From a virus (taxonomy: Duplodnaviria > Caudoviricetes): a DNA stretch of 64,000 nt. Below the pieces are notes generated by a model. That model was not told where the DNA came from. It saw only the letters and a list, made by a program, of their open reading frames with translations, and did no database searches. Shown here in pieces: positions 4,642 through 59,529 of this stretch. The translations under genes and the position numbers were made by a program. Where the stretch lies: IMG/VR virus record IMGVR_UViG_3300048996_000137, positions 627 through 64,626 of that record. One strand, given 5' to 3'. Within the stretch, counting starts at the first letter, position 1, and every line of letters starts with the position of its first letter.

Positions 4642-5121
4642 TCACAACAGCGGCACGCCCGGCGGCCAGCGGTACTCGAGCAAGCGGATCGCCGGGTAGT
4701 ACTGCTCGCAGACCTCGTTGTGTTGGTTCGCGCCGAGTAGCAGCAGTCGCTCGGCCGAGCTCTTCACGTAGAAGCCGATGTGGCCGTCGCCGACCTGACC
4801 CCTCGGAGCGTCCTTGGTCGTGCGCCAGAGGATCACCAAGCAGCCGAGACGCGGCTCGGTGAGCGCCGAGCCGTAGTGGAGGAAGTTGCGCGCTTTCGCA
4901 TAGCGCGGGTTCGGGAGCTTCTCTTGCTCGAGCACCCAGCACACGAACGCGGCGCAGTGCGCGGTCGCGTCGTGCCAGTACTTCTTGTCGAGGTTCGTCG
5001 TTCTCAGGTACTCGACGATCCGCGGATTGTCGGCGGTGCCGGGCGCTTCTTTCTGCCCGATCTCACCACGCGCGCGGACGTAGTGCGCTGGCTGCCGCGG
5101 TGGGGGTGTTTGCAGCGTCAT
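4642..5121 (-). CDS. Endolysin, TIGR02594-like (CHAP/NlpC-P60 Cys-His peptidase)
   Basis: ARGEIGQKE..G..DNPRIVEY, HCAAFVCWVL, GHIGFY, LLGANQ. Confidence 0.85.
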   Translation of the reverse strand: MTLQTPPPRQPAHYVRARGEIGQKEAPGTADNPRIVEYLRTTNLDKKYWHDATAHCAAFVCWVLEQEKLPNPRYAKARNFLHYGSALTEPRLGCLVILWRTTKDAPRGQVGDGHIGFYVKSSAERLLLLGANQHNEVCEQYYPAIRLLEYRWPPGVPLL

Positions 5122-31203: not shown

Positions 31204-31458
31204 TCACTCCAGCGCGTCGTCGTCATCGTCTTCGCGCACGAAGTAGTAGGTGCCGCTGAGAGCTCGATCTACGGCTGCGTAATACGCTGCGCCGTTGGCG
31301 GGCGTCAGCAGCCCCGCGCCCGTGACGATGGTCTTGATGTGCGGGTAGAGATCCAGCGTCGCGGGCGGATCGACGACAACTTGCCCGCCCACGAGCTCGA
31401 ACGTGCACAGCGTCTCGTGTTCGAGGCTGTCCGGATCAACTTGGATGAGGCGTTTCAC
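31204..31458 (-). CDS. Small acidic protein; candidate partner/immunity of the portal-fused kinase
   Basis: GTGA-coupled to portal-kinase stop; TPANG.AY...L.GTY motif. Confidence 0.6.
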   Translation of the reverse strand: MKRLIQVDPDSLEHETLCTFELVGGQVVVDPPATLDLYPHIKTIVTGAGLLTPANGAAYYAAVDRALSGTYYFVREDDDDDALE

Positions 31459-34337
31459 TTGGTCTTCCGCGAAAGCCGCGTGATCTCTTCGAGGTCTTTC
31501 TTCGAGAGCTCGTCTCTGCGAAACCGCTCTTCGGGAATCGCGTTGATCCAGTGGTGAACCGACTCGGCTGCGTCGTGCGCCGCGCTCCAGCGATAGCCAT
31601 CCTGAAACTGGCGCGGCTCGTGCTGCAGCGAACGCACGCGCGCGAGCGTGGATGCGATCTGGTGCTCGGTGATGCCGTGGTCGTGCAGCATCGAGGCCAC
31701 GTGCTCGAGCTTGAGGCTCTGGAGCGCCGAGACGTGCTCGGGCTGAAACTTCACAACTTCCTCGGCGAACGAAGGTGTTTGCTCGATCGCAAACAGGAAC
31801 CGCGCCGGCCTCTCCGGAAATGTCAGGCCATGGTCGATCGCGACTGGGCGAAACGGATGCGCGTCGGGACCGTCCTCATGCCACAACGTGTTTTGCGGGT
31901 TGCGATCGTCGTTGCCGGCGATGAGGTCGAGCATCAGCATCCGCTTCGAGGCCGGATGCGCGCCGAGCTTGGCGAGCTCGGCGTCCCTGGAATCACGCGG
32001 ATCTGCCGACGACCGCTGCTCAGCTCGCCCGATCGAATCGAAGTACACATTCATGCTCGACTTCGCGTTGGGCTCCCACGCCTGCAGCGAGCCGTCCTTG
32101 CCGTCGTGCTCGCGGTGCACGGTGTGCGGCACCATCTTGTCGCCGGCCAACATCTGATCGAGCTTGTGAAACGCCTGTTCGCGACGACCCATCGAGCCAT
32201 TCGCAAGACCCGCGCGGTACTCCTCCATCTGCGGGATCGGCGGGTTGGCCTTCCAGATCGCGTGCTGCTCGTGGCCGTTTTTGTCGCGCAGCGTGAGGCG
32301 CTTCGAACCGAAGTTGCCCGTGTTCACATCGGTGGTGCTGACAACGTTGAGCTTCTCAGCCGTCATCCACTCGGGAGCCGCAGAAGCACCGCCGGGGGCT
32401 TTCTTGTCGGCAGCAGTCTTGCGCGATTTGCCGCTACGAGCTGGTTTGTCGCCATGCTCGGTCCCGCTTGCCGCTTTCTTCGTCTTCGTCGTCCTGGCGG
32501 CCGCTGGCTTCGCCGCGCGCGCCTTCACCTTTGCGATCCGCTCACGTGATGCTTTGCCGCGCTTGGCTGCAGCGCCGCCCGGACGCGATGCGAACCGCCC
32601 ACCCTTGCCGTGGTTCGGGTTGAACAGCTCGGGCTCGAGCGACAGCCCAGGCTCGAGCTCTTCGTCGTCTTCGTCCTCTTCGTCGTCCTCGTCGACCGCG
32701 TGACGGCCCGCGAGGTTCGCCATCACGATGCCCGCTTCCAGAATCTCAGCGAGCGTGTCGGGATCCTGCTCGTCCGCGAAGGCCTTCAAGATCGCCGCGC
32801 GAGCACTCACGTAGTCCGTTGCGCCATCGACGGCCGCAACCAAGCGATCGACGAGCGGCTGCAGCGCCTGCGCACCCTGCGCGACCGAAGCGTCCGCGAC
32901 GTCGTCCACGTAGAGCTGACCGTTTACGAAGCCGGTGCTCGACTCTTCTTCTTCGTCGTCGTCGGCCGCGAGCCTGGCGCCCGGCTTGCGGGTCGGCTTG
33001 GTGCTACTGGGGAGTTTTTTTTTCAGGCCGCCACCGCCGCCGCCACCAGCTGCGCCCGGTGGAACGGGTGGAGGATTGGCCGCGTCCTTCTCGGCCTGGC
33101 TCATCTCAGTGAGCTTGACGCCGTACTGCTCTTCGATCTCCGCGGCGGTGAGCTTGAAGCCCGCTTGCTGGATCGCGCCGAGCGCGGTGCCGAGTGTCGC
33201 GAGCGTTTCGACCTTCGCGCCTTTGTCCTCGGGCGGGTCGGTGTTGTAGCGAGGGAACGGCGCGAGGCCGCGATCGCCGAAGTTGTACTCAGCCCACCAC
33301 GGCAAGCTCTGCTCTTGCAGAATCCGTCCGAGCTTCTTCGACATGTACCTGAACACGCGGAGCTCTTTGCGCTCATGCGTGTTCGCGGCGGCGTAGCTGC
33401 CGCCCTCCACTTCGGTCGTGAGGTTTTGCCCGACGAGCGCAAGCGTGAAGCCCATGTTCGCGGCTTCGATCTGCGCCTTGTAAATCGACTCGGTGCCGGC
33501 GGTCAGCTCGACGAGCTCGAGCGTGAACCCCTGCGGCAAACTGATGACCGCGTCCTTCGCGAGGTTGAAGATCTCGTTCGCGAGCGCGCGCCGGTCTTCG
33601 GGCAGCGCGCCTTCATTTGAGTTGAGGACGAGCTTCGAAGCTTTCTCCGAATGCACGCCCCAGTCGCTCATCGCGTAGCGCTTGAGCATCCACCACGGCG
33701 AGCAGCCTCGCCATTTGCCGTTCGACCACGGCCGGTAGTCACCCTTGAGCGTGCCGATGATCCATTCGCCGTCGCCGGCGACGATGGGCGTGTCGCGACC
33801 GCTCTCGTCGCGGAACAGCCACGTGTTGTGCTCCCAGTCCCAGCGAAAGTGTTTCGGGTGGTACGTCTTGAAGACGGGCAAGACGCGTCCGCCAGACTTC
33901 GAGGGAAGCCACTGCACGTGCCGCCCGAACGCCAGGCCCACGATCTCGAGCCAATCGAGAAAGCTCGCGAGCTCGTCTTCGCCGTACGCGAGCGGCCAGT
34001 CTTCCTCGAGCTCGGCGGCTTTCTCCGCATCGCCGAGTGTCGAGCGCGCGTCCTTCTCGAACGACAGATCACAGCCGAGCACGCCGCCGCTGACGTCATC
34101 GAGCAGCTTGTTGATCCGATCGTCGGCGATCATCTGATCGCCGAGATCACCGAGCCGAATCAGATCGCCGCTGTCCGCAGTCGCAGTGAGCGTTTGCAGC
34201 GAGCGCGGCGTCCAGTGGAGATAGCTCCGAATGGACGGCTGACTGAGAACCTGCCCCTTGCCACCCTGAATGAGCTGCAGGTGGCCGCGCCGGTTTTTCT
34301 CCGGCGTGCCCGCAGTGGGTGGTCTACGGATGGCCAT
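31455..34337 (-). CDS. Portal protein (DUF935/Mu gp29-like) fused to C-terminal PI3/4K- or HipA-like kinase domain
   Basis: Portal motifs LVGQNLTTE..GGSYA...HE and C-terminal ANLAGR; then AIWK, RREQAFHKLD, VPHTV, GSLQAW, LDLIAGNDDR..N, AIDHGLTF. Confidence 0.85.
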   Translation of the reverse strand: MAIRRPPTAGTPEKNRRGHLQLIQGGKGQVLSQPSIRSYLHWTPRSLQTLTATADSGDLIRLGDLGDQMIADDRINKLLDDVSGGVLGCDLSFEKDARSTLGDAEKAAELEEDWPLAYGEDELASFLDWLEIVGLAFGRHVQWLPSKSGGRVLPVFKTYHPKHFRWDWEHNTWLFRDESGRDTPIVAGDGEWIIGTLKGDYRPWSNGKWRGCSPWWMLKRYAMSDWGVHSEKASKLVLNSNEGALPEDRRALANEIFNLAKDAVISLPQGFTLELVELTAGTESIYKAQIEAANMGFTLALVGQNLTTEVEGGSYAAANTHERKELRVFRYMSKKLGRILQEQSLPWWAEYNFGDRGLAPFPRYNTDPPEDKGAKVETLATLGTALGAIQQAGFKLTAAEIEEQYGVKLTEMSQAEKDAANPPPVPPGAAGGGGGGGLKKKLPSSTKPTRKPGARLAADDDEEEESSTGFVNGQLYVDDVADASVAQGAQALQPLVDRLVAAVDGATDYVSARAAILKAFADEQDPDTLAEILEAGIVMANLAGRHAVDEDDEEDEDDEELEPGLSLEPELFNPNHGKGGRFASRPGGAAAKRGKASRERIAKVKARAAKPAAARTTKTKKAASGTEHGDKPARSGKSRKTAADKKAPGGASAAPEWMTAEKLNVVSTTDVNTGNFGSKRLTLRDKNGHEQHAIWKANPPIPQMEEYRAGLANGSMGRREQAFHKLDQMLAGDKMVPHTVHREHDGKDGSLQAWEPNAKSSMNVYFDSIGRAEQRSSADPRDSRDAELAKLGAHPASKRMLMLDLIAGNDDRNPQNTLWHEDGPDAHPFRPVAIDHGLTFPERPARFLFAIEQTPSFAEEVVKFQPEHVSALQSLKLEHVASMLHDHGITEHQIASTLARVRSLQHEPRQFQDGYRWSAAHDAAESVHHWINAIPEERFRRDELSKKDLEEITRLSRKTK

Positions 34338-34364
34338 GTTGGTAGAAGGGCGGGGGAGGCAGAC

Positions 34365-34748
34365 GTGACGAAAATCACTGACGAAGAAGCCATCGCCGCG
34401 GGTGCAGAGCCGGAGGACACCGACTCGCTGCACGCCGCGCGGCTGCAAGAAGAGAAAGCGCAGCTGCTCGAGCGCGACCTGGTCACCGCCCGCATCGACG
34501 TTCAAAACCGGACACAGTGTCTGCAGCGTGCGGTGCGGGTGCTGCAGACCTTCAAGAGCAATGCCGAGCTCGCGCAAGCGAAAGCGGCCGATGTGGAAAA
34601 GATGCTGAGCGAGCGCGCAATCGACGCCGGCGACGAATACACCGAGGGCACGAGCTGGAAAGAGCTTGGGCTAAAGCACGCTGCCGCCGCGGAAGCGTGG
34701 ACCAAGGCGGCGCAGCTGCTGCGCGAAGCGCTACAGGCTTACGTATGA
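34365..34748 (+). CDS. Helical hypothetical protein, antisense to late operon
   Basis: GGAGG RBS before GTG; fills terminase-portal gap. Confidence 0.6.
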   Translation: MTKITDEEAIAAGAEPEDTDSLHAARLQEEKAQLLERDLVTARIDVQNRTQCLQRAVRVLQTFKSNAELAQAKAADVEKMLSERAIDAGDEYTEGTSWKELGLKHAAAAEAWTKAAQLLREALQAYV

Positions 34749-34764
34749 ACGACGGGCGCTACGA

Positions 34765-34956
34765 ATGAACGTGCAACTCGAACTGTTCCCGTTACCGGCG
34801 ACGACCTGTCGCTGCGGGCGCGCCCTGACGGCTTTCATCAACTGCTACCGCGAGCGTTGCGATCACTGCATCTTGCGCGAGGGTCCGCCGCCGGCCGGCG
34901 AAGATCCGGAGGCCAAGCGCGTCGCCCTCAAGCGTTGGCTGAACGCTCAGGTGTAG
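34765..34956 (+). CDS. Small Cys-rich protein
   Basis: QLELF, CRCG, CDHC. Confidence 0.5.
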   Translation: MNVQLELFPLPATTCRCGRALTAFINCYRERCDHCILREGPPPAGEDPEAKRVALKRWLNAQV

Positions 34957-36425
34957 CGACCGCCGCCGCCGAGCACTCCGTAATCGTCGAGGTACAACAG
35001 CGCCGCATCGACACCGCTGACAATCGCATCCGTTTGATCGGACACGTCCTGCTCTGCGCCGGTGAAGCTCGTCAGCTCATCGACGAACACCGGCTGCCAC
35101 GGGTGCGCCTCGATGTCTTCGGGCACAAGAATGCGGCCGAGGTTCCAGAGCTCGCTCGAGGTGAGCGAGCGCGTCAGCTTGTCGCGACCCTTCGGGTCCA
35201 TCACGACGAGCGGGATGCCCTTTTCGCGAATGAACGAAGCGCAGCCCGCTTCAGTGCCCGACGCGTACCAGTAGAACTTCGCGCGACGTGTCGAAAACGC
35301 TGCCTTGAGCGTCAGCGTGAAGCTCGGCGCCTCGACCTGCTTGCGCTGCACATCCACGACGTAGAACAGATAATCTTCTTTGCGCTGCTTCTCGCCGCGT
35401 TTGGTCTTCGCCGGCGGCACAACCCACAGCGTCACGAGCACGCTCCAGTCCGCGCGCGTTTTCGCGGTGTACGCGAGGTCTACGCCGTACACGACGCGGA
35501 AGCCCTCGGTGGGCAACTCGCGATAGTACGTCGGCGTCTTGAAGAGCGTTCCGCCGCGAGGCTGCGGCTGGCCCTGATACAGACTCGCGAAGTTCCACTG
35601 GTTGGCGAGCTGCCGCTCGAGCAGCATCGACAGTGGCCGGTGCGCTTCCCACAGCGCTTCGCCAACCGCCCGCTCGTCGCCGGCGGGCATGTCCTCGCCG
35701 TCGCAAATCGCTTTGAGGTTGATGTACTCGAACCCCTGCTCGCGCACGAGGTAGCCGGACAGATCGTCCGGATGCCAGCGCGTCGCCATCACGATCACGC
35801 TCGAGCCCGGATGAAGCCGCGACTCGACGGTGCCGTGGTACCAGTCCTGCTGGTACGCGCGCGTCGCTTGAGATTCCGCTGCGCCGCGATCCTTGAGCGG
35901 ATCGTCGACCATCATCACGCCGTCGATCGGCTCTCCGGTGAGCCCGCCGCCGACCGAGGTCCACACCACTTGGCCGAGCTCTTCGTTGAGCCACAGGCCA
36001 CCGTTCGCGACGGTCAGCGGCACGCGCGCGCGCTGCGCCGTTACGAGCGCTTTGCGCGAGACGCGTCGCGCGCGATCGTCGTTGTACGTCGCGTACGCGA
36101 ATCGCAGCGCGGGCCACTTGCGCAGCCAGAAGCAAATCGCGTGGACAACCGTTTCGGTCTTGCCGTGCTGCGGCGGAGCCGCGAACACGATCCGCAAGTT
36201 CGCGCCCGGCGCCCGCTCGAGCACATCGACGTAGGGCTTGAGATGGAGCGGCGGTTCCCAGCGCGGTGTGATCCGCGGGATCCACTCCATCAGCGCGTCA
36301 GTGAACTGAGTTGGGTCCTGACTTAGGTCCGCGAGCAGCAGGCGCTGGCGGACTTTCTCTTCGAGCGAGGTATGCCGAGCAGAGTGCGCGGAAAACTTCT
36401 GGCTCAAGTAGCCCTTGGGCAACAT
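34947..36425 (-). CDS. terL: Terminase large subunit (start uncertain, perhaps nearer 36290)
   Basis: APPQHGKT Walker A, GG.LTG, VDDP.K, TRWHPDDL.G, LYQGQP, VDLA, FT...DQ.DA. Confidence 0.95.
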   Translation of the reverse strand: MLPKGYLSQKFSAHSARHTSLEEKVRQRLLLADLSQDPTQFTDALMEWIPRITPRWEPPLHLKPYVDVLERAPGANLRIVFAAPPQHGKTETVVHAICFWLRKWPALRFAYATYNDDRARRVSRKALVTAQRARVPLTVANGGLWLNEELGQVVWTSVGGGLTGEPIDGVMMVDDPLKDRGAAESQATRAYQQDWYHGTVESRLHPGSSVIVMATRWHPDDLSGYLVREQGFEYINLKAICDGEDMPAGDERAVGEALWEAHRPLSMLLERQLANQWNFASLYQGQPQPRGGTLFKTPTYYRELPTEGFRVVYGVDLAYTAKTRADWSVLVTLWVVPPAKTKRGEKQRKEDYLFYVVDVQRKQVEAPSFTLTLKAAFSTRRAKFYWYASGTEAGCASFIREKGIPLVVMDPKGRDKLTRSLTSSELWNLGRILVPEDIEAHPWQPVFVDELTSFTGAEQDVSDQTDAIVSGVDAALLYLDDYGVLGGGGRYT

Positions 36426-36900
36426 CGAGGAACTCGTTGAGCTGGTCGTCGATCGTGTGAACGACGCGTGGCGACCAGTGCTGCGGGTTGCGGAGCGCCA
36501 GGCGTTGGAACGCGACCATCGCGGCCGATTCCTTCACCTTCTGCGCGGCGCCCATCTCGCCGGCGAGCTGCAACATCTCATCGGTTGTGATCGCGTAGCG
36601 GTGCCCGCAGCGCTCGCACGCGACCGGCTTGTGGTCGAGGTTCGCCGCGCGCGCGGTCGTGATCACGTCGTTGACTTCGCCCTCGTCGGACGCCTTCTGC
36701 GCCTCTTCGAGAAAGAGCGTGTACTTGTTGCGTTTGCCCGCGGCCGCGGCCGCACGCCACTCGTGCAGCCGCTGGCGGCGGATGCCGCACGCAGACAGCG
36801 CGGTGGAAAGCGTATTGCCGCCTCGGACCAGCAGAAGCACGCGCTCTCGAACTTCTTCGAGGCGCTTGGGCGCTTCAGACTTCTTCTTCGGCGGCAGCAC
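36298..36900 (-). CDS. Terminase small subunit-like protein (HTH + CxxC)
   Basis: N-terminal HTH (GNT..A...CGI....L.EW); L.LR.PQ.W; upstream of terL. Confidence 0.7.
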   Translation of the reverse strand: MLPPKKKSEAPKRLEEVRERVLLLVRGGNTLSTALSACGIRRQRLHEWRAAAAAGKRNKYTLFLEEAQKASDEGEVNDVITTARAANLDHKPVACERCGHRYAITTDEMLQLAGEMGAAQKVKESAAMVAFQRLALRNPQHWSPRVVHTIDDQLNEFLDVAQGLLEPEVFRALCSAYLARRESPPAPAARGPKSGPNSVH

Positions 36901-37990
36901 GCGCTACGTCCGTCAGCGGTTCTTCGTCTGCTTTTTCTTCGTCTTCTTGGCCGACTTCTTCGCTGCCTTCGCCGGTGCGCTCGGCGCTTTCTGTGCCGTT
37001 CTCTTCGTCATGCTCGTCTCCAACAACGGGGTGCTCTTCGTCCTGTTCGAGCTCGGGTAGTTCGCGGTCGACGATCGGGATCGCCACGAGCGCATCGCGC
37101 GCCATCGCGGCCTCGCGCTCAGTCATCTGCGTGATCTCACGGGCGGCGGCTTCGCGCGACTGCTCCGCGATGCGGGTCTGCTCGGCGCGCTGCTGCTGGT
37201 AGAGCGGCTCGAGCAGCGCATGCAGGCGCTTGCCGTCCTGGAATGTGTTGATCTCGAGGCCGAGCGTTGTCATGAACTTCTCGCTGTCCTCGACGTCCTT
37301 GAACACCACCACGATGTAGAAGTGCTCGCGATCGCGGCCCGCGTTCAGGTTCGCAGTCACCGCGTCGATCGCACCGCTCACATCGCGCTGCGCCTGCGCG
37401 AGCGCTTGCAGCTCCACGCCATGCTCGAGCGCAAAGGGGCTCTCCCCCAGCACGTGCATGATGTCCGCCATGTCGAAGCCGGTGGCTTCGAGGCGCAAAC
37501 CCTCGGTCCGCAGCGCCGCATCGAGCTTTTCGAGATCGAACAGCCCGTGCGTCTCGGGGTTGTTCAGCAGGATGTTCGCCTCGACCTCTTCGGCGAACGT
37601 GAGATCGACCTCCGCAACCTGCAGCGCGTACGCGGGCTTGCCGCCCGCGAGCTTGTCGAGCAGAGCGAGGCGCTGATGGCCGCCGACGAGCGTGCCACTG
37701 CGCCCGTTCCATACGAGCGGCTGGAGCAAGCCCAGCTTCTCGAGCCCGCCGCGCAGCTTCTTACGAGACTGGTCGCTGATCACGCGCGGGTTGTATTCGG
37801 CGTTCTTGATGTCCGCGCGCCAGATCGTGCGAGCTCGGTACTTCTGAAGCGGATGCACGTGCGCCAGCAGGTCGGCGCCGACGTCGCGTTCGGCTCCCCC
37901 TCCCACTGCAGCCATTCTCGGTGCATCCCCTGCTACCGCAGCACTTAGCGGGGAGACCGGGTCGTCGGTGGGCTCAGATGCCGACGCCAT
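36875..37990 (-). CDS. ParB/Srx-like domain protein
   Basis: AEYNPRVIS, GLLQPLVWN..SG.LVGGHQRL, E..ANI.LNN. Confidence 0.9.
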   Translation of the reverse strand: MASASEPTDDPVSPLSAAVAGDAPRMAAVGGGAERDVGADLLAHVHPLQKYRARTIWRADIKNAEYNPRVISDQSRKKLRGGLEKLGLLQPLVWNGRSGTLVGGHQRLALLDKLAGGKPAYALQVAEVDLTFAEEVEANILLNNPETHGLFDLEKLDAALRTEGLRLEATGFDMADIMHVLGESPFALEHGVELQALAQAQRDVSGAIDAVTANLNAGRDREHFYIVVVFKDVEDSEKFMTTLGLEINTFQDGKRLHALLEPLYQQQRAEQTRIAEQSREAAAREITQMTEREAAMARDALVAIPIVDRELPELEQDEEHPVVGDEHDEENGTESAERTGEGSEEVGQEDEEKADEEPLTDVARAAAEEEV

Positions 37991-38645
37991 AAAACTCTCG
38001 TCGCTTCACGATCGCGTGCACGAAGGGAAACACCGCGCGCAGCTTCGCGTAGTCGTTCGGAAACTTGTCGTGCAGCCAAAGCACATCGGGCGTCGCAAGC
38101 CCGATGCCCGTCATCGCTCCGCCGCTCGACTCGGGCAGCGGGATCTTGTGCACCGCCAAGTAGCCGAGCACGTCGGCTTTGCCCCAGCCGACGAGCGGAT
38201 GCATCACGTCGGTGTAGTGAGCGGTGTTAGCGAGGTTGCGCTTGCGCCAGAGCGAATCGCCGCGGCGCGCGCCCGTCGCGATCATCTTGATGCCCGTGCG
38301 ATCGATCATCAGGTTGTAGATGTCGCGCAGCTTCACCTCGGGCAGGTCTTCGAGCTTCCAGCTCGGGAACATGTAGAAGCCGTACTTGAGCGAGCGCGCC
38401 ACCGTCCAGTGCGGCACCTGATGGATCGTGACGCCGTAGCGACTGCGCGCGAGCTCGAGCCGCCGCTCGATCACCTCGAGCCCCGGGATGAAGTACATGA
38501 AGAACGCTTCGACCCGCGCGAACGTGCGCACGCACATGTCGAGGACGCACAGCGAATCCTTGCCCGCGCTGAACGACACGAGGCACGCGTCGCTGCGCTC
38601 CTTGGCCTTGTTCAGGATCCCGAACGTTTCCTGCAGCGGGTCCAT
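37974..38645 (-). CDS. PAPS-reductase-like (PP-loop/adenine nucleotide alpha hydrolase) protein
   Basis: SFSAGKDSL, TGARRGDSL.R, PL..W...DV..Y. Confidence 0.9.
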   Translation of the reverse strand: MDPLQETFGILNKAKERSDACLVSFSAGKDSLCVLDMCVRTFARVEAFFMYFIPGLEVIERRLELARSRYGVTIHQVPHWTVARSLKYGFYMFPSWKLEDLPEVKLRDIYNLMIDRTGIKMIATGARRGDSLWRKRNLANTAHYTDVMHPLVGWGKADVLGYLAVHKIPLPESSGGAMTGIGLATPDVLWLHDKFPNDYAKLRAVFPFVHAIVKRREFYGVGI

Positions 38646-38654
38646 CGGCGCGGA

Positions 38655-38891
38655 TCAGCCCGCGCCGCCGCGCGAGAACTTGCCGCCCTTCTCGTGGCGG
38701 TAGTCGCCTTTGCCACCGCCGCCGCCGCCGCCGCCGCCGCCAAAAAGACGACGAAGAGCCGCGCCCGCTGCAGCGGCCGCCGTCTTGATCGAGAACGTGC
38801 GGCCGCTCTTCTTCTTCTTGCGCGAGCCCGAGGAGCGCCTCAGCGCGGCTGTGCCGCCGCCGAATCGACCACCAACGTTTGTCGTCGCCAT
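38655..38891 (-). CDS. Basic Gly-rich peptide B (78 aa)
   Basis: GAGG RBS; ends GGKGDYRHEKGGKFSRGGAG. Confidence 0.75.
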   Translation of the reverse strand: MATTNVGGRFGGGTAALRRSSGSRKKKKSGRTFSIKTAAAAAGAALRRLFGGGGGGGGGGKGDYRHEKGGKFSRGGAG

Positions 38892-38967
38892 CGTCGAAGC
38901 CCCTCGGTTGAAAGTCCAAAACGAGAAAGAGGGCACGCGGCTGCGTGCCCTCTTTCGGAACTCGGGA

Positions 38968-39114
38968 TCAGCCCGCGCCGCCGCGCGAGAACTTGCCGCC
39001 CTTTTCGTGGCGGTAGTCGCCCTTGCCGCCTTTGCCGCGGCCTTTCTTCGACTTGCCCGCGCCCGCCGCAGCGCCCGCCGTTTTCACTGCCATCGTTACG
39101 TTTTTGCGTGCCAT
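38968..39114 (-). CDS. Basic Gly-rich peptide A (48 aa; below ORF-track cutoff)
   Basis: GAGGAG RBS; hand translation MARKNVTMAVKTAGAAAGAGKSKKGRGKGGKGDYRHEKGGKFSRGGAG. Confidence 0.75.
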   Translation of the reverse strand: MARKNVTMAVKTAGAAAGAGKSKKGRGKGGKGDYRHEKGGKFSRGGAG

Positions 39115-39270
39115 GGAGTCTCTCCTCGCGCGCGTGCGCGTCTGTGTCCGGTTGTCCGGCTCAAGCGCGGCTCGAACTGCCGGTCAATCTCGTCCTCGAC
39201 TGCTGACGACACAACCCCAGTGACATGCACCGAGGCTGCGCGAGCCCTATGAATGGGTGCTGCGCCAGCC

Positions 39271-39306
39271 GTCGCCCGTTGTCGCTGGCTGTCGCTCGCT
39301 GTCGCT
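39271..39306. repeat. Four GTCGC repeats at exact 10-bp spacing
   Basis: GTCGC at 39271, 39281, 39291, 39301 in divergent intergenic region. Confidence 0.7.
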
Positions 39307-39333
39307 CCAATCGTCGTCTAGTGTGCGGCTGCG

Positions 39334-57666: not shown

Positions 57667-59529
57667 ATGACGAAACATGCTCTGGCGCTGTCGAAGGACC
57701 TGACACTACCGGCCGACGCAGCGACGCAGACGTTTGCGTTCCTCGGACGGAAGGGTAGCGGCAAAACTTACGCCGCGGGCAAGCTCGTCGAACTTTTGCT
57801 CCAAGCGCAGACGCAAGTCGTGATCTTGGACACGGTCGGCAACTGGTACGGGTTGCGCCTCTCCGCCGACGGCAAGAAGCGCGCGTTCGACATTCCGGTG
57901 ATCGGTGGACTGCGCGGAGATGTGCCGCTCGAAGCCGAAGGCGGGGCGCTCATCGCAGACACGCTGATGGACACCGGTCGCAGCGCGATCGTGGACATCT
58001 CGCAGTTTTCGAAGGCCGCGCGGCAGCGTTTTGCGACGGCGTTCGGTGAGCGGCTGTGGCAGCGAAAAAAAGCCGACCACCATCCGGTACCGCTGACGTT
58101 GGTGATCGAAGAGGCTCAGCTCATCGTGCCGCAGGCGGTCGCCGGCGACACCGCGCGCATGGTGGGCATCTACGAGGAGATCATTCGGCTCGGCCGCAAC
58201 TACGGCATCGGCGTCGTGATGATCTCCCAGCGCCCGCAGTCGGTGAACAAAGAAGTCCTCAATCAAACCGAGTGTCTGTGCGTGTTTCAGACGTCGGGCG
58301 CGCAGGAACGCGACGCGCTCAAAAAGTGGATCGTGGATCAGGGCGGCAGCGTCGACCTGATCAAGGAGCTGCCGAGCTTGCCGATCGGCACGGGCTACTT
58401 GTGGAGCCCGCAGTGGTTGCAGGTGTTCAAGCGGATCACGATCGCGCCGAAGACGACGTACGACTCGACCGCAACGCCCAAGCCCGGCCAGAAGCGCGCG
58501 ACCGCGAAGCTCGCGCCGCTCGACTTGGATGACCTGGCCACGCGCATGAAAGAGGTAGTCGAGCGCGCGAAGCAGGACGATCCGAAGGCCTTGCGCAAGC
58601 GCATCGCCGAGCTCGAGCGGGACGCCGAACAGCGCCGGCTGGTCAGCGAGAAGTGGGCGCAGCGAGAGCACGAGCTCCTTCTGAAGCTCGACAAAAAGAA
58701 GCCGGGTAAGCCCGTCGAGATCAAGGCGCCGGTGCTCGACCCAAAGGCGCGCGCGATGCTCGACACGTTGGTGAAAGCCGGACGGCAGGCCTCGACCCAG
58801 CTCGAAGCGTTGCAAAAGCGCGTCCTCGCGGCCGCAACTCAACCGCCGCACGACCCGCGGCAGCTGTCGATCGAGCAGCTCGCGGGTGCGGTGATCTCTC
58901 CGCCGCCGCGGCACGGCAAGAGGATTGCGATGCAGGCGATCGCGAACCTGCAGAACGCCCGACCCATCACGCTCGCCGACTTCGAGGCAACGGCGAAGGC
59001 TCAAACCCAATCGACGACGCGGGCTTTCTTCGGCATCGATCACGCAGCGAAGGACGGCAACGGACACGCCGATGCGCACGTGGGCGACGGGGAGCGAAAA
59101 ATCCTCACCGCGGCAGCGCAAAATCCAGACGGCGCGTCGCGCGAGCAGCTGACGCTGTTCACCGGCTACAAGCGCTCGACGCGCGATCGCTACATCCAGC
59201 GCTTGCGCCAGAAGGACCTCGTGCTCGAACAGGGCGGGCAGATCGTTGCGAGCCCGGCCGGAGTTGCGTGGCTCGGCGACGACTATGTGCCGCTGCCGCG
59301 CGGAGCGGCACTCCTGCATCACTGGATGGGGCGCTTGCCCGAAGGCGAGCGCGCAGTGCTTCAGGTCGTGGTGCATCACCACCCGCAGGCCGTACCGCGC
59401 GATGAGATCAGCGAAGCGACGGGCTACAAACGTTCGACGCGCGATCGCTACTTGCAGCGCCTCGCACTTCGCAAGCTCGTGAGCAACGCCGACCGCGACG
59501 GCATCGTCGCGAGCAAAGAGCTGTTTTGA
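57667..59529 (+). CDS. HerA/DUF87-like ATPase with duplicated C-terminal wHTH
   Basis: GRKGSGKT, IEEAQ, GRNYGIG...ISQRP; two TGYKRSTRDRY.QRL repeats. Confidence 0.88.
   Translation: MTKHALALSKDLTLPADAATQTFAFLGRKGSGKTYAAGKLVELLLQAQTQVVILDTVGNWYGLRLSADGKKRAFDIPVIGGLRGDVPLEAEGGALIADTLMDTGRSAIVDISQFSKAARQRFATAFGERLWQRKKADHHPVPLTLVIEEAQLIVPQAVAGDTARMVGIYEEIIRLGRNYGIGVVMISQRPQSVNKEVLNQTECLCVFQTSGAQERDALKKWIVDQGGSVDLIKELPSLPIGTGYLWSPQWLQVFKRITIAPKTTYDSTATPKPGQKRATAKLAPLDLDDLATRMKEVVERAKQDDPKALRKRIAELERDAEQRRLVSEKWAQREHELLLKLDKKKPGKPVEIKAPVLDPKARAMLDTLVKAGRQASTQLEALQKRVLAAATQPPHDPRQLSIEQLAGAVISPPPRHGKRIAMQAIANLQNARPITLADFEATAKAQTQSTTRAFFGIDHAAKDGNGHADAHVGDGERKILTAAAQNPDGASREQLTLFTGYKRSTRDRYIQRLRQKDLVLEQGGQIVASPAGVAWLGDDYVPLPRGAALLHHWMGRLPEGERAVLQVVVHHHPQAVPRDEISEATGYKRSTRDRYLQRLALRKLVSNADRDGIVASKELF

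Follow-up and report, generated by a model that had tools for sequence, protein, structure and literature searches.

What is the role of two short basic peptides encoded at the very start of a phage late operon, directly ahead of an enzyme resembling 3′-phosphoadenosine-5′-phosphosulfate (PAPS) reductase? The question is raised by a DNA stretch of 64,000 nucleotides (nt) from a tailed phage (Duplodnaviria; Caudoviricetes), positions 627 to 64,626 of the IMG/VR record IMGVR_UViG_3300048996_000137, referred to here as the window. Comparison with related loci showed that small basic open reading frames (ORFs) with glycine-rich tails are clearly, specifically and recurrently linked to the clade of PP-loop enzymes found in the window. 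The two window peptides exemplify a class that is widespread but has no name; its members are about 25–120 amino acids (aa) long, strongly basic and disordered or helical, with a flexible Gly-rich C terminus. The gene of such a peptide is the first, often duplicated, gene of a mobile phage cassette lying ahead of diverse terminase genes. The peptides and their two partners are located as follows.

38968–39114, minus strand: peptide 1, 48 aa, isoelectric point (pI) 11.2, 27% Gly, the first gene of the late operon.
38971–39030, minus strand: coding sequence of the shared 20-aa tail of peptide 1.
38655–38891, minus strand: peptide 2, 78 aa from its ATG, pI 12.0, 31% Gly, a paralog of peptide 1.
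38658–38717, minus strand: coding sequence of the shared 20-aa tail of peptide 2.
37974–38645, minus strand: PP-loop ATP pyrophosphatase, PAPS-reductase-like, 223 aa.
36875–37990, minus strand: ParB/Srx-like protein, 371 aa, with a GGHQR motif (phrog_9353/620) and a strongly acidic C-terminal tail.

The earlier note on this DNA had claimed that the two peptides carry an identical 20-aa C terminus, and both were found to end in GGKGDYRHEKGGKFSRGGAG. The direct repeat that encodes it (38652–38729 and 38965–39042) extends over 78 nt with 91% identity. Across the 20 tail codons the copies differ at three synonymous and no non-synonymous positions (14.7 synonymous and 45.3 non-synonymous sites), and the chance of all three differences hitting synonymous sites is about 0.015 by our own arithmetic; the further claim, that the tail DNA differs only synonymously and is selected at the peptide level, held as well. 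The peptides are also paralogs over their whole length, which had been overlooked: both start with MA..NV, and a second repeat (38759–38786 and 39057–39084, 89% identity) encodes (V/I)KTAxAAAGA. Peptide 2 carries an internal run of ten Gly residues and would be 93 aa long if an upstream GTG were its start. Shine–Dalgarno-like sequences read from the DNA, GAGGAG and GAGGGG, precede the two genes, whose G+C contents at third codon positions (0.80 and 0.78) lie within the range of neighbouring genes (0.76–0.90). Beyond these two copies, the 64,626-bp genome does not contain the shared tail. Peptide 2 is predicted to be disordered, with a predicted local distance difference test score (pLDDT) of 0.42 in its ESM Atlas (ATLAS) model.

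Homology searches with the window peptides returned only their own paralog, with nothing in IMG/VR or GenBank phages and no usable match in the ESM Atlas, and neither peptide matched any Pfam family at E values up to 1. The KGG stress-protein repeat of Pfam was considered for the KGG motifs and rejected, as no Pfam match was obtained for either peptide.

Since the window peptides have no detectable homologs, related loci were surveyed through homologs of the enzyme. An alignment of 30 enzyme homologs served as the seed and gave 30 metagenome loci and 80 IMG/VR loci. The closer loci numbered 86 (L007–L012 and L037–L116; numbers with L denote individual loci here and below), 82 of them with at least 200 nt upstream. 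ORFs ending between −200 and +80 nt of the start of the enzyme match were scored by a strict rule (at least three Gly in the last six residues and a terminal Gly) and by a loose rule (at most 130 aa, net charge of at least +6 and at least two Gly in the last eight residues); both rules are simple, and start codons are uncertain. Without dereplication, 38/82 loci were positive by the strict and 58/82 by the loose rule. Random positions in the same loci gave 61/7750 and 506/7750, and the starts of ORFs of at least 150 aa gave 9/805 and 56/805, respectively. After dereplication, 42 clusters out of 64 were positive by the loose rule; at random positions the figure was 368/5935 (6.2%), and none of the 23 testable loci of distant PAPS-reductase relatives (L013–L036) was positive. 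The survey of short ORFs upstream of homologous genes, suggested in the earlier note as a check, was thus clearly positive, and the refuting outcome named there, a lack of such peptides next to the homologs, did not occur. Its expectation of conserved Gly-ending tails held in part: Gly-rich tails recur beside the homologs, but the terminal residue is not always Gly, the 42 dereplicated positives ending in GG (22), in xG (10) or otherwise (10, including GGA, GAD, AGQ, SGQ and GGH).

The linkage was also seen in the reverse direction. When IMG/VR was scanned with a DNA pattern for RRKSxGGxGG and an adjoining stop codon, 45 matches were obtained, and a PP-loop gene (profile E value of 1e-15 or better) begins right after the match in 36 of them, many of these being close relatives of one another. 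Among the other nine, seven are not ORFs of such shape (6–21 residues), one lies at a contig end and the last is an additional peptide gene that directly follows the PP-loop gene on its contig. The result was replicated independently in bacterial and archaeal assemblies, where 14 of 17 full-length homologs with at least 33% identity were positive, against none of eight weaker or partial ones; the hosts were Acidobacteriota, Planctomycetota, Bacillota, Actinomycetota and Desulfovibrionaceae. Positive loci span 32% to 70% GC. Spurious ORFs of high-GC DNA were rejected as a source, as matches occur at 32–50% GC, the controls come from the same contigs and the ratio of non-synonymous to synonymous change is low.

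The closest relatives of the window enzyme (66–77% identity) lie outside the locus survey, in which the closest locus examined was L037, at 54% identity. There, a 24-aa (KKGG)n peptide with a ribosome site is encoded 18 nt upstream of the enzyme gene. Further upstream, at about 4680–4750 of the same locus, the sequence resembles a tRNA gene, by eye only.

The other partner gave a third view of the cassette. In a search anchored on the ParB-like gene, the PP-loop gene lay directly upstream in 59 of 60 unique testable IMG/VR loci, and a peptide satisfying the loose rule was present within 1.3 kb in 39 of those 59. From the enzyme side, a phrog_9353 ParB-like ORF was among the first two ORFs after the enzyme gene in at least 38 of the 60 clusters with downstream ORFs, a lower bound because ORF picking was crude. 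The ParB-like gene after the PP-loop gene falls in the same PHROG (9353) in the related loci, whereas the terminase genes that follow are diverse: small subunits of PHROGs 309, 4102, 57, 1889 and 2538 and large subunits of PHROGs 979, 2, 38, 15, 3717 and 5909. Given the near-complete pairing and the many different terminase PHROGs, the enzyme and the phrog_9353-type ParB form a nearly obligate unit that passes from one packaging module to another, accompanied by the peptide about two thirds of the time. The window carries the cassette in full, with a small basic Gly-tailed ORF ending at the PP-loop start and a phrog_9353-type ParB behind it.

To relate peptide type to enzyme descent, a quick tree of 101 enzyme sequences was built, which includes loci chosen by the peptide pattern and in which near-copies cluster by themselves. 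A 40-row clade (support 99), here clade I, contains the window, and its peptides are rich in Lys, Ala and Gly and have poly-Gly or xG ends. The RRKSxGGxGG type is limited to a 48-row subclade, with 8 label changes on the tree against 29.9 in shuffles (0/500 as low). The tail type is co-inherited with the enzyme clade. The end of the window tail, ...KFSRGGAG, resembles ...RFSAWLGGSG and ...KFRAGLGGAG of L047, a likeness over a very short length. Duplicates with a conserved tail and a divergent body, like those of the window, occur in L047 and L052–54; in L097 and L156 one copy lies on either side of the enzyme gene.

The peptides of the class form no family in Pfam, PHROGs or NCBIfam, and the only library match within it was a weak one of a single relative to phrog_18219 (function unknown; E 0.007). 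The GGxGG family has 40 members among 5.8 billion proteins at an E value of 0.01 or better, all labelled "hypothetical" except for one mislabelled as ribosomal protein S20; tblastn with a peptide of this family gave no match in GenBank phages. The predicted structure of the family consists of two basic helices and, behind them, a free tail (pLDDT 68.7). A cultured phage with such a peptide is Bacteroides phage BS-TP2, whose gp53 of 53 aa ends in ...GANGSNG and belongs to a trio with gp54 and gp55. Riemerella phage RAP44 is a possible second one: an unannotated 44-aa basic ORF (L005, 3860–3994; net charge +9), ending in ...KANGAI, lies 7 nt 5′ of its annotated PAPS-reductase-family gene. In L138, L149 and L150 the peptide frame seems interrupted or shifted relative to the 52-aa version of L124, only the last 12 codons being in frame with a start; assembly error or decay may account for this.

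Codon comparison indicates that peptides of the class are translated and under purifying selection. Two GGxGG-family genes, those of L122 and L152, differ by 13 synonymous and 2 non-synonymous changes, in the same direction as the tail copies of the window. The Gly tails could in principle have been a by-product of a Shine–Dalgarno sequence (GGAGG) of the next gene. This was rejected, because the Gly codons are used freely and such tails are rare before other genes: at the penultimate Gly of 41 unique tails, GGC is used 11 times, GGG 10, GGT 11 and GGA 9. Because these codons vary freely, selection is on Gly rather than on a ribosome site.

The gene spacing shows translational coupling of the peptide gene to the enzyme gene. 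The peptide stop lies within 15 nt of the enzyme start, as estimated from the profile, in 58 of 78 unique peptides, and frequently overlaps an ATG as TAATG; in the window the distance from the peptide 2 stop to the PP-loop gene start is 9 nt. In 16 cases the gap is 40 nt or more. Six of these loci (L044, L060, L066, L111, L166 and L170) have a strong hairpin and U-run in the gap, of the same design as the element behind peptide 1 of the window.

38915–38956, minus strand: terminator- or attenuator-like hairpin between the peptide genes, with a perfect 14-bp stem, nine GC pairs and a 4-nt loop, followed by TCGTTTTGG.

As RNA, the window hairpin has a minimum free energy of −40.1 kcal/mol (z −4.1), and none of 200 shuffled sequences was equally stable.

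What chemistry could the enzyme offer? It belongs to the PP-loop ATP pyrophosphatase/PAPS_reduct superfamily: PF01507 (PAPS_reduct) was its only Pfam match (E 1.7e-7, 31.9 bits against a cut-off of 22.5 bits), its best PHROG was 424 (2e-12), with phrog_2302 weaker (2.7e-9), and its clade counts 533 representatives of 50%-identity clusters at an E value of 1e-30 or better. The superfamily is marked by an SGGxDS PP-loop motif and an alpha/beta ATP-pyrophosphatase fold. The PP-loop residues S26, G28, K29 and D30 are invariant in the 30-homolog alignment, in which no Cys is invariant or nearly so. An AF2 model (pLDDT 92.2) shows a generic PP-loop fold. Its Foldseek matches were TilS, TtuA, LarE, adenosine-5′-phosphosulfate (APS) reductase and CysD (E 2e-7 to 1e-5, template modelling score about 0.5), with the TtuA–TtuB complex 5gha among them. 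By sequence profile, the best solved relatives were CysD (1.5e-4) and Cap9 (9nto, 2e-4), both weak.

Several known identities were rejected. The catalytic C-terminal Cys of CysH sits in the ECGLH arm; no conserved Cys is present here, and the NCBIfam CysH and APS-reductase models scored far under their cut-offs, which speaks against an assimilatory PAPS/APS reductase. An Fe–S sulfurtransferase of the DndC or TtuA type would need conserved Cys residues to ligate a [4Fe-4S] cluster. IbrA has a C-terminal DUF3440 domain besides PAPS_reduct, whereas the window enzyme has 223 aa and PF01507 alone, with PHROG 424 rather than 2302 as its best match. The lack of a conserved Cys therefore excludes CysH-, DndC- and TtuA-type chemistry on the enzyme itself. 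PP-loop enzymes have in common that an oxygen is adenylated and a nucleophile then attacks. A PP-loop fold without an invariant Cys thus favours adenylation and ligation over persulfide chemistry.

With about two thirds of the cassettes beginning with a conserved Gly-tailed peptide, a concrete candidate substrate for the enzyme is at hand. Judging from these comparisons, the peptides are probably the missing third component of the PP-loop/ParB pair. The reading that we prefer, tentatively, is that the peptide is the substrate or carrier of the enzyme, which would activate the peptide's C-terminal carboxylate as the basic body keeps hold of DNA. The basic body would sit on DNA, the ParB-like protein would recruit the enzyme to DNA when packaging occurs, and the Gly tail would thread into the PP-loop active site. 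There adenylation of the C-terminal carboxylate would most likely be followed by capture with an N (or S) nucleophile, and the product could be an amide, an isopeptide, a DNA adduct or a thiocarboxylate. Because a terminator hairpin follows peptide 1, this peptide would be made in excess over the enzymes, as suits a substrate that is consumed. A wider version is quite unlikely, in which the cassette is a minimal phage system for C-terminal conjugation, akin to ubiquitin or Pup: a Cys-less PP-loop enzyme, loaded on DNA by a ParB-like clamp, would adenylate the Gly terminus of the DNA-bound basic peptide and, during genome packaging, ligate the peptide either to the phage DNA or to a protein of the packaging machinery or the host; if it were true, peptide-decorated packaged DNA would resist host nucleases.

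Several results weigh against the preferred reading. As ten of the 42 tails do not end in Gly, a Gly carboxylate is not universal, and the window tail itself ends in GGAG. The low-complexity Lys/Ala/Gly polycations of clade I, which includes the window, look more like DNA counter-ions than like specific substrates. No such ORF was found by the loose rule in 22 of the 64 homologous clusters, and no convincing peptide–enzyme fusion was seen among 13 longer homologs inspected. Because just one of 60 ParB loci lacks a PP-loop gene, co-occurrence cannot assign the peptide to either partner. In the known PP-loop systems Cap9 and QatC, it is an N-terminal motif of the partner (MGGS or MGTS) that supplies an amine nucleophile, whereas here the C terminus is conserved. 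A co-fold of the PP-loop protein (with the 30-row alignment), peptide 1 and ATP scored 0.02 against a mark of 0.32 in a run without controls, and counts neither for nor against any reading.

The acidic tail of the window ParB might seem to suit a basic partner. It comprises about 80 aa (36875–37120, minus strand) and overlaps the start of the gene for the terminase small subunit (TerS); its last 60 residues have a net charge of −23 and the whole protein −37. In the window it could bind the basic peptides. As a general partner of such peptides it was rejected, since a comparable tail was found in only two (L044 and L069) of 37 related ParB ORFs.

The counter-ion reading is the main rival, and we consider it somewhat unlikely. 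It holds that the peptides are abundant protamine-like polycations which condense DNA or are co-packaged with it and are not substrates, adjoining the PP-loop and ParB genes because all of them act at packaging. Their pI of 11–12, Lys/Arg/Ala/Gly-rich composition and predicted disorder agree with such a role, as do the clade-I relatives resembling histone-H1-type AKK repeats (e.g., L044, L062 and L100), the terminator behind peptide 1, which implies high expression, and the absence of the peptide from one third of the cassettes. Against it, conservation is strongest in the uncharged Gly tail, anchored at the extreme C terminus, and not in the basic body. The peptide moreover follows the PP-loop clade across different terminase families and hence probably across different capsids. 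It is absent from all 23 distant PAPS-reductase loci, and its tight stop–start coupling is with the enzyme gene.

The same linkage, in the forward survey, the reverse test and the dereplicated counts, also agrees with a non-covalent subunit, which anchors DNA or activates the PP-loop/ParB machine with its tail docking unaltered, the true substrate being DNA or a nucleotide. The helices and free tail predicted for the GGxGG family would suit a subunit, and a phage ParB-like protein is reported to be the required activator of a DNA dioxygenase acting on double-stranded DNA (PMC13229309). A stoichiometric subunit is, however, poorly matched by a terminator that yields more of peptide 1 than of the enzymes, and the extremely fast divergence of the body sequence also speaks against it. 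We regard this explanation as unlikely. That the ORF is a functionless regulatory leader, merely coupling or attenuating translation of the enzyme genes, is very improbable: stop–start overlaps are common and hairpins stand behind some copies, but purifying selection acts on the amino acids (13 differences synonymous and 2 non-synonymous; in the window, 3 and 0), free codon choice goes with a conserved Gly tail, and paralogs are retained.

Among the closest known systems are TtuA/TtuB, Ncs6/Urm1 and ThiS/MoaD, in which the PP-loop enzyme receives a small protein with a Gly-Gly end, much as is proposed here. GG-thiocarboxylate chemistry is known for sulfur carriers of the ThiS/MoaD type with a GG-COOH end. 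These carriers have a β-grasp fold and an E1-like activator, whereas peptides of the present class are disordered or helical. TtuA binds an Fe–S cluster through Cys residues, whereas the window enzyme has no invariant Cys and many of the peptide tails are not GG-ended. A ubiquitin-like or ThiS/MoaD β-grasp was rejected for the peptides, given the pLDDT of peptide 2, the helices plus tail of the GGxGG family and the absence of Pfam matches. A peptide carrier following ThiS-like logic, as proposed in the earlier note, would have a fold unlike that of ThiS.

Disordered peptides activated at their C terminus are known in Pup and in MccA, the microcin C precursor. Like the window peptides, these and the precursors of ribosomally synthesized and post-translationally modified peptides (RiPPs) are short, unstructured and gene-encoded, and their conserved reactive part is the C-terminal end, as it would be here. 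The activating enzymes are of other folds, PafA being glutamine-synthetase-like and MccB E1-like. A RiPP precursor gene followed by a read-through hairpin yields more peptide than enzyme, as the hairpin behind peptide 1 would; the window cassette has no leader/core architecture and no other RiPP enzymes. The DNA-condensing adenovirus proteins VII and Mu are likewise small late Lys/Arg-rich peptides with Gly-Gly motifs. Their Gly-Gly is a protease cut site before or after the basic part, whereas here Gly is the encoded end, linked to a PP-loop gene, and no link to a maturation protease was seen.

Pairs of a PAPS-reductase-superfamily PP-loop protein and a ParB/Srx-like protein, often beside terminase, are known in the IbrA/IbrB-type pairs of phages and prophages and in DndC/DndB, and phage records annotate such pairs as PAPS-reductase and ParB genes. 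The window enzyme differs from IbrA in being a 223-aa single domain without DUF3440 and in its PHROG (424, not 2302), and its ParB belongs to phrog_9353, not 2159; from DndC it differs in lacking the DndC-type Cys residues. No mention of a peptide partner was found for IbrA/IbrB-type or DndC/DndB pairs. The PAPS-reductase-like/ParB cassette is of a known but uncharacterised kind, and its peptide partner appears to be new.

Two defence systems share the arrangement. In type IV CBASS, Cap9 conjugates deazaguanine to the N terminus of its CD-NTase (bioRxiv 10.1101/2025.04.06.647259), and in QatABCD the PP-loop enzyme QatC takes the flexible Gly-bearing terminus of QatB into its active site (PMC13279940). 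As in the present cassette, a PP-loop enzyme stands beside a partner with a disordered terminus of small residues or Gly. Cap9 and QatC are, however, of the QueC family (PF06508), whereas the window enzyme is PAPS_reduct-like, and they serve host defence, whereas the cassette is a phage late/packaging one with a ParB. For the ParB-like protein, the literature offers the phage activator of the DNA-modifying enzyme 5mYOX (PMC13229309) and DpdB and DndB as ParB-like helpers of DNA-modifying enzymes (PMC12839542).

No description of such peptides was found in the full-text literature, supplementary files being outside the search. The PAPS-reductase-like/ParB pair beside terminase is among the commonest unexplained phage cassettes. 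Its genes are routinely labelled "sulfur metabolism" or "auxiliary metabolic gene", and the peptide gene is usually unannotated or "hypothetical". If C-terminal activation were true, PP-loop enzymes would have a new chemistry by which proteins or DNA are conjugated, and phages a new form of genome protection; if the peptides were counter-ions only, tailed phages would even so provide a rare example of DNA-condensing peptides that are gene-encoded.

The source record is complete (64,626 bp with direct terminal repeats), and the window is nearly the whole of it. The minus-strand late operon runs in the order peptide 1, hairpin, peptide 2, PP-loop enzyme, ParB-like protein, TerS and the terminase large subunit (TerL), so that the module outlined in the earlier note was correct in its parts (PF01507, phrog_9353/620, phrog_4102 and phrog_38). 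Genes for the portal, protease, major head protein, sheath, tape measure and baseplate follow beyond TerL on the same strand, and an integrase, a DNA methyltransferase and SbcCD-like genes are encoded elsewhere. Because integrase is present together with sheath, tape measure and baseplate genes, the source is a temperate myovirus-like phage with the peptides as the first genes of its late operon. The remaining features of the region are as follows.

36298–36900, minus strand: TerS, terminase small subunit, a weak phrog_4102 match.
34947–36425, minus strand: TerL, terminase large subunit (phrog_38, E 8e-57).
39115–39333, no strand: divergent intergenic region that separates the minus-strand late operon from plus-strand genes.

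A sigma-70 consensus was not found in the intergenic region, and a search of IMG/VR with the TerL protein alone returned no relatives. No RNA run is listed among the sequencing runs that contain the phage; the sole DNA run is a soil metagenome, and the assembly homologs nearest to the window enzyme come from Acidobacteriota.

Minor observations were made on the cassettes of other phages. In L097, from a low-GC phage, the ParB-like gene of the cassette (1468–2739, 424 aa) has an N-terminal HNH endonuclease module (phrog_59 and phrog_9353), and the second Gly-tailed peptide gene (1147–1287) lies between the enzyme and ParB genes, as does the second copy in L156. An ASCH-domain gene lies just 5′ of the cassette in several phages (L006, 3385–3774; L005, 3370–3828; L011, L106–L108, L115, L116 and L162). 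It is annotated in BS-TP2 and was judged alike in the rest by eye only, from a ...KTIE.R.W... motif; in some it replaces the peptide.

Within the window, the portal ORF (31455–34577, minus strand, 1040 aa) matches portal proteins over residues 229–649, which leaves about 390 C-terminal residues unexplained. A 620-aa ORF beside the SbcCD-like genes (57667–59529, plus strand) has a "terminase large subunit" match (phrog_2666, E 1e-22); given its distance from the true packaging module, the ORF probably encodes an ATPase or nuclease related to terminase.

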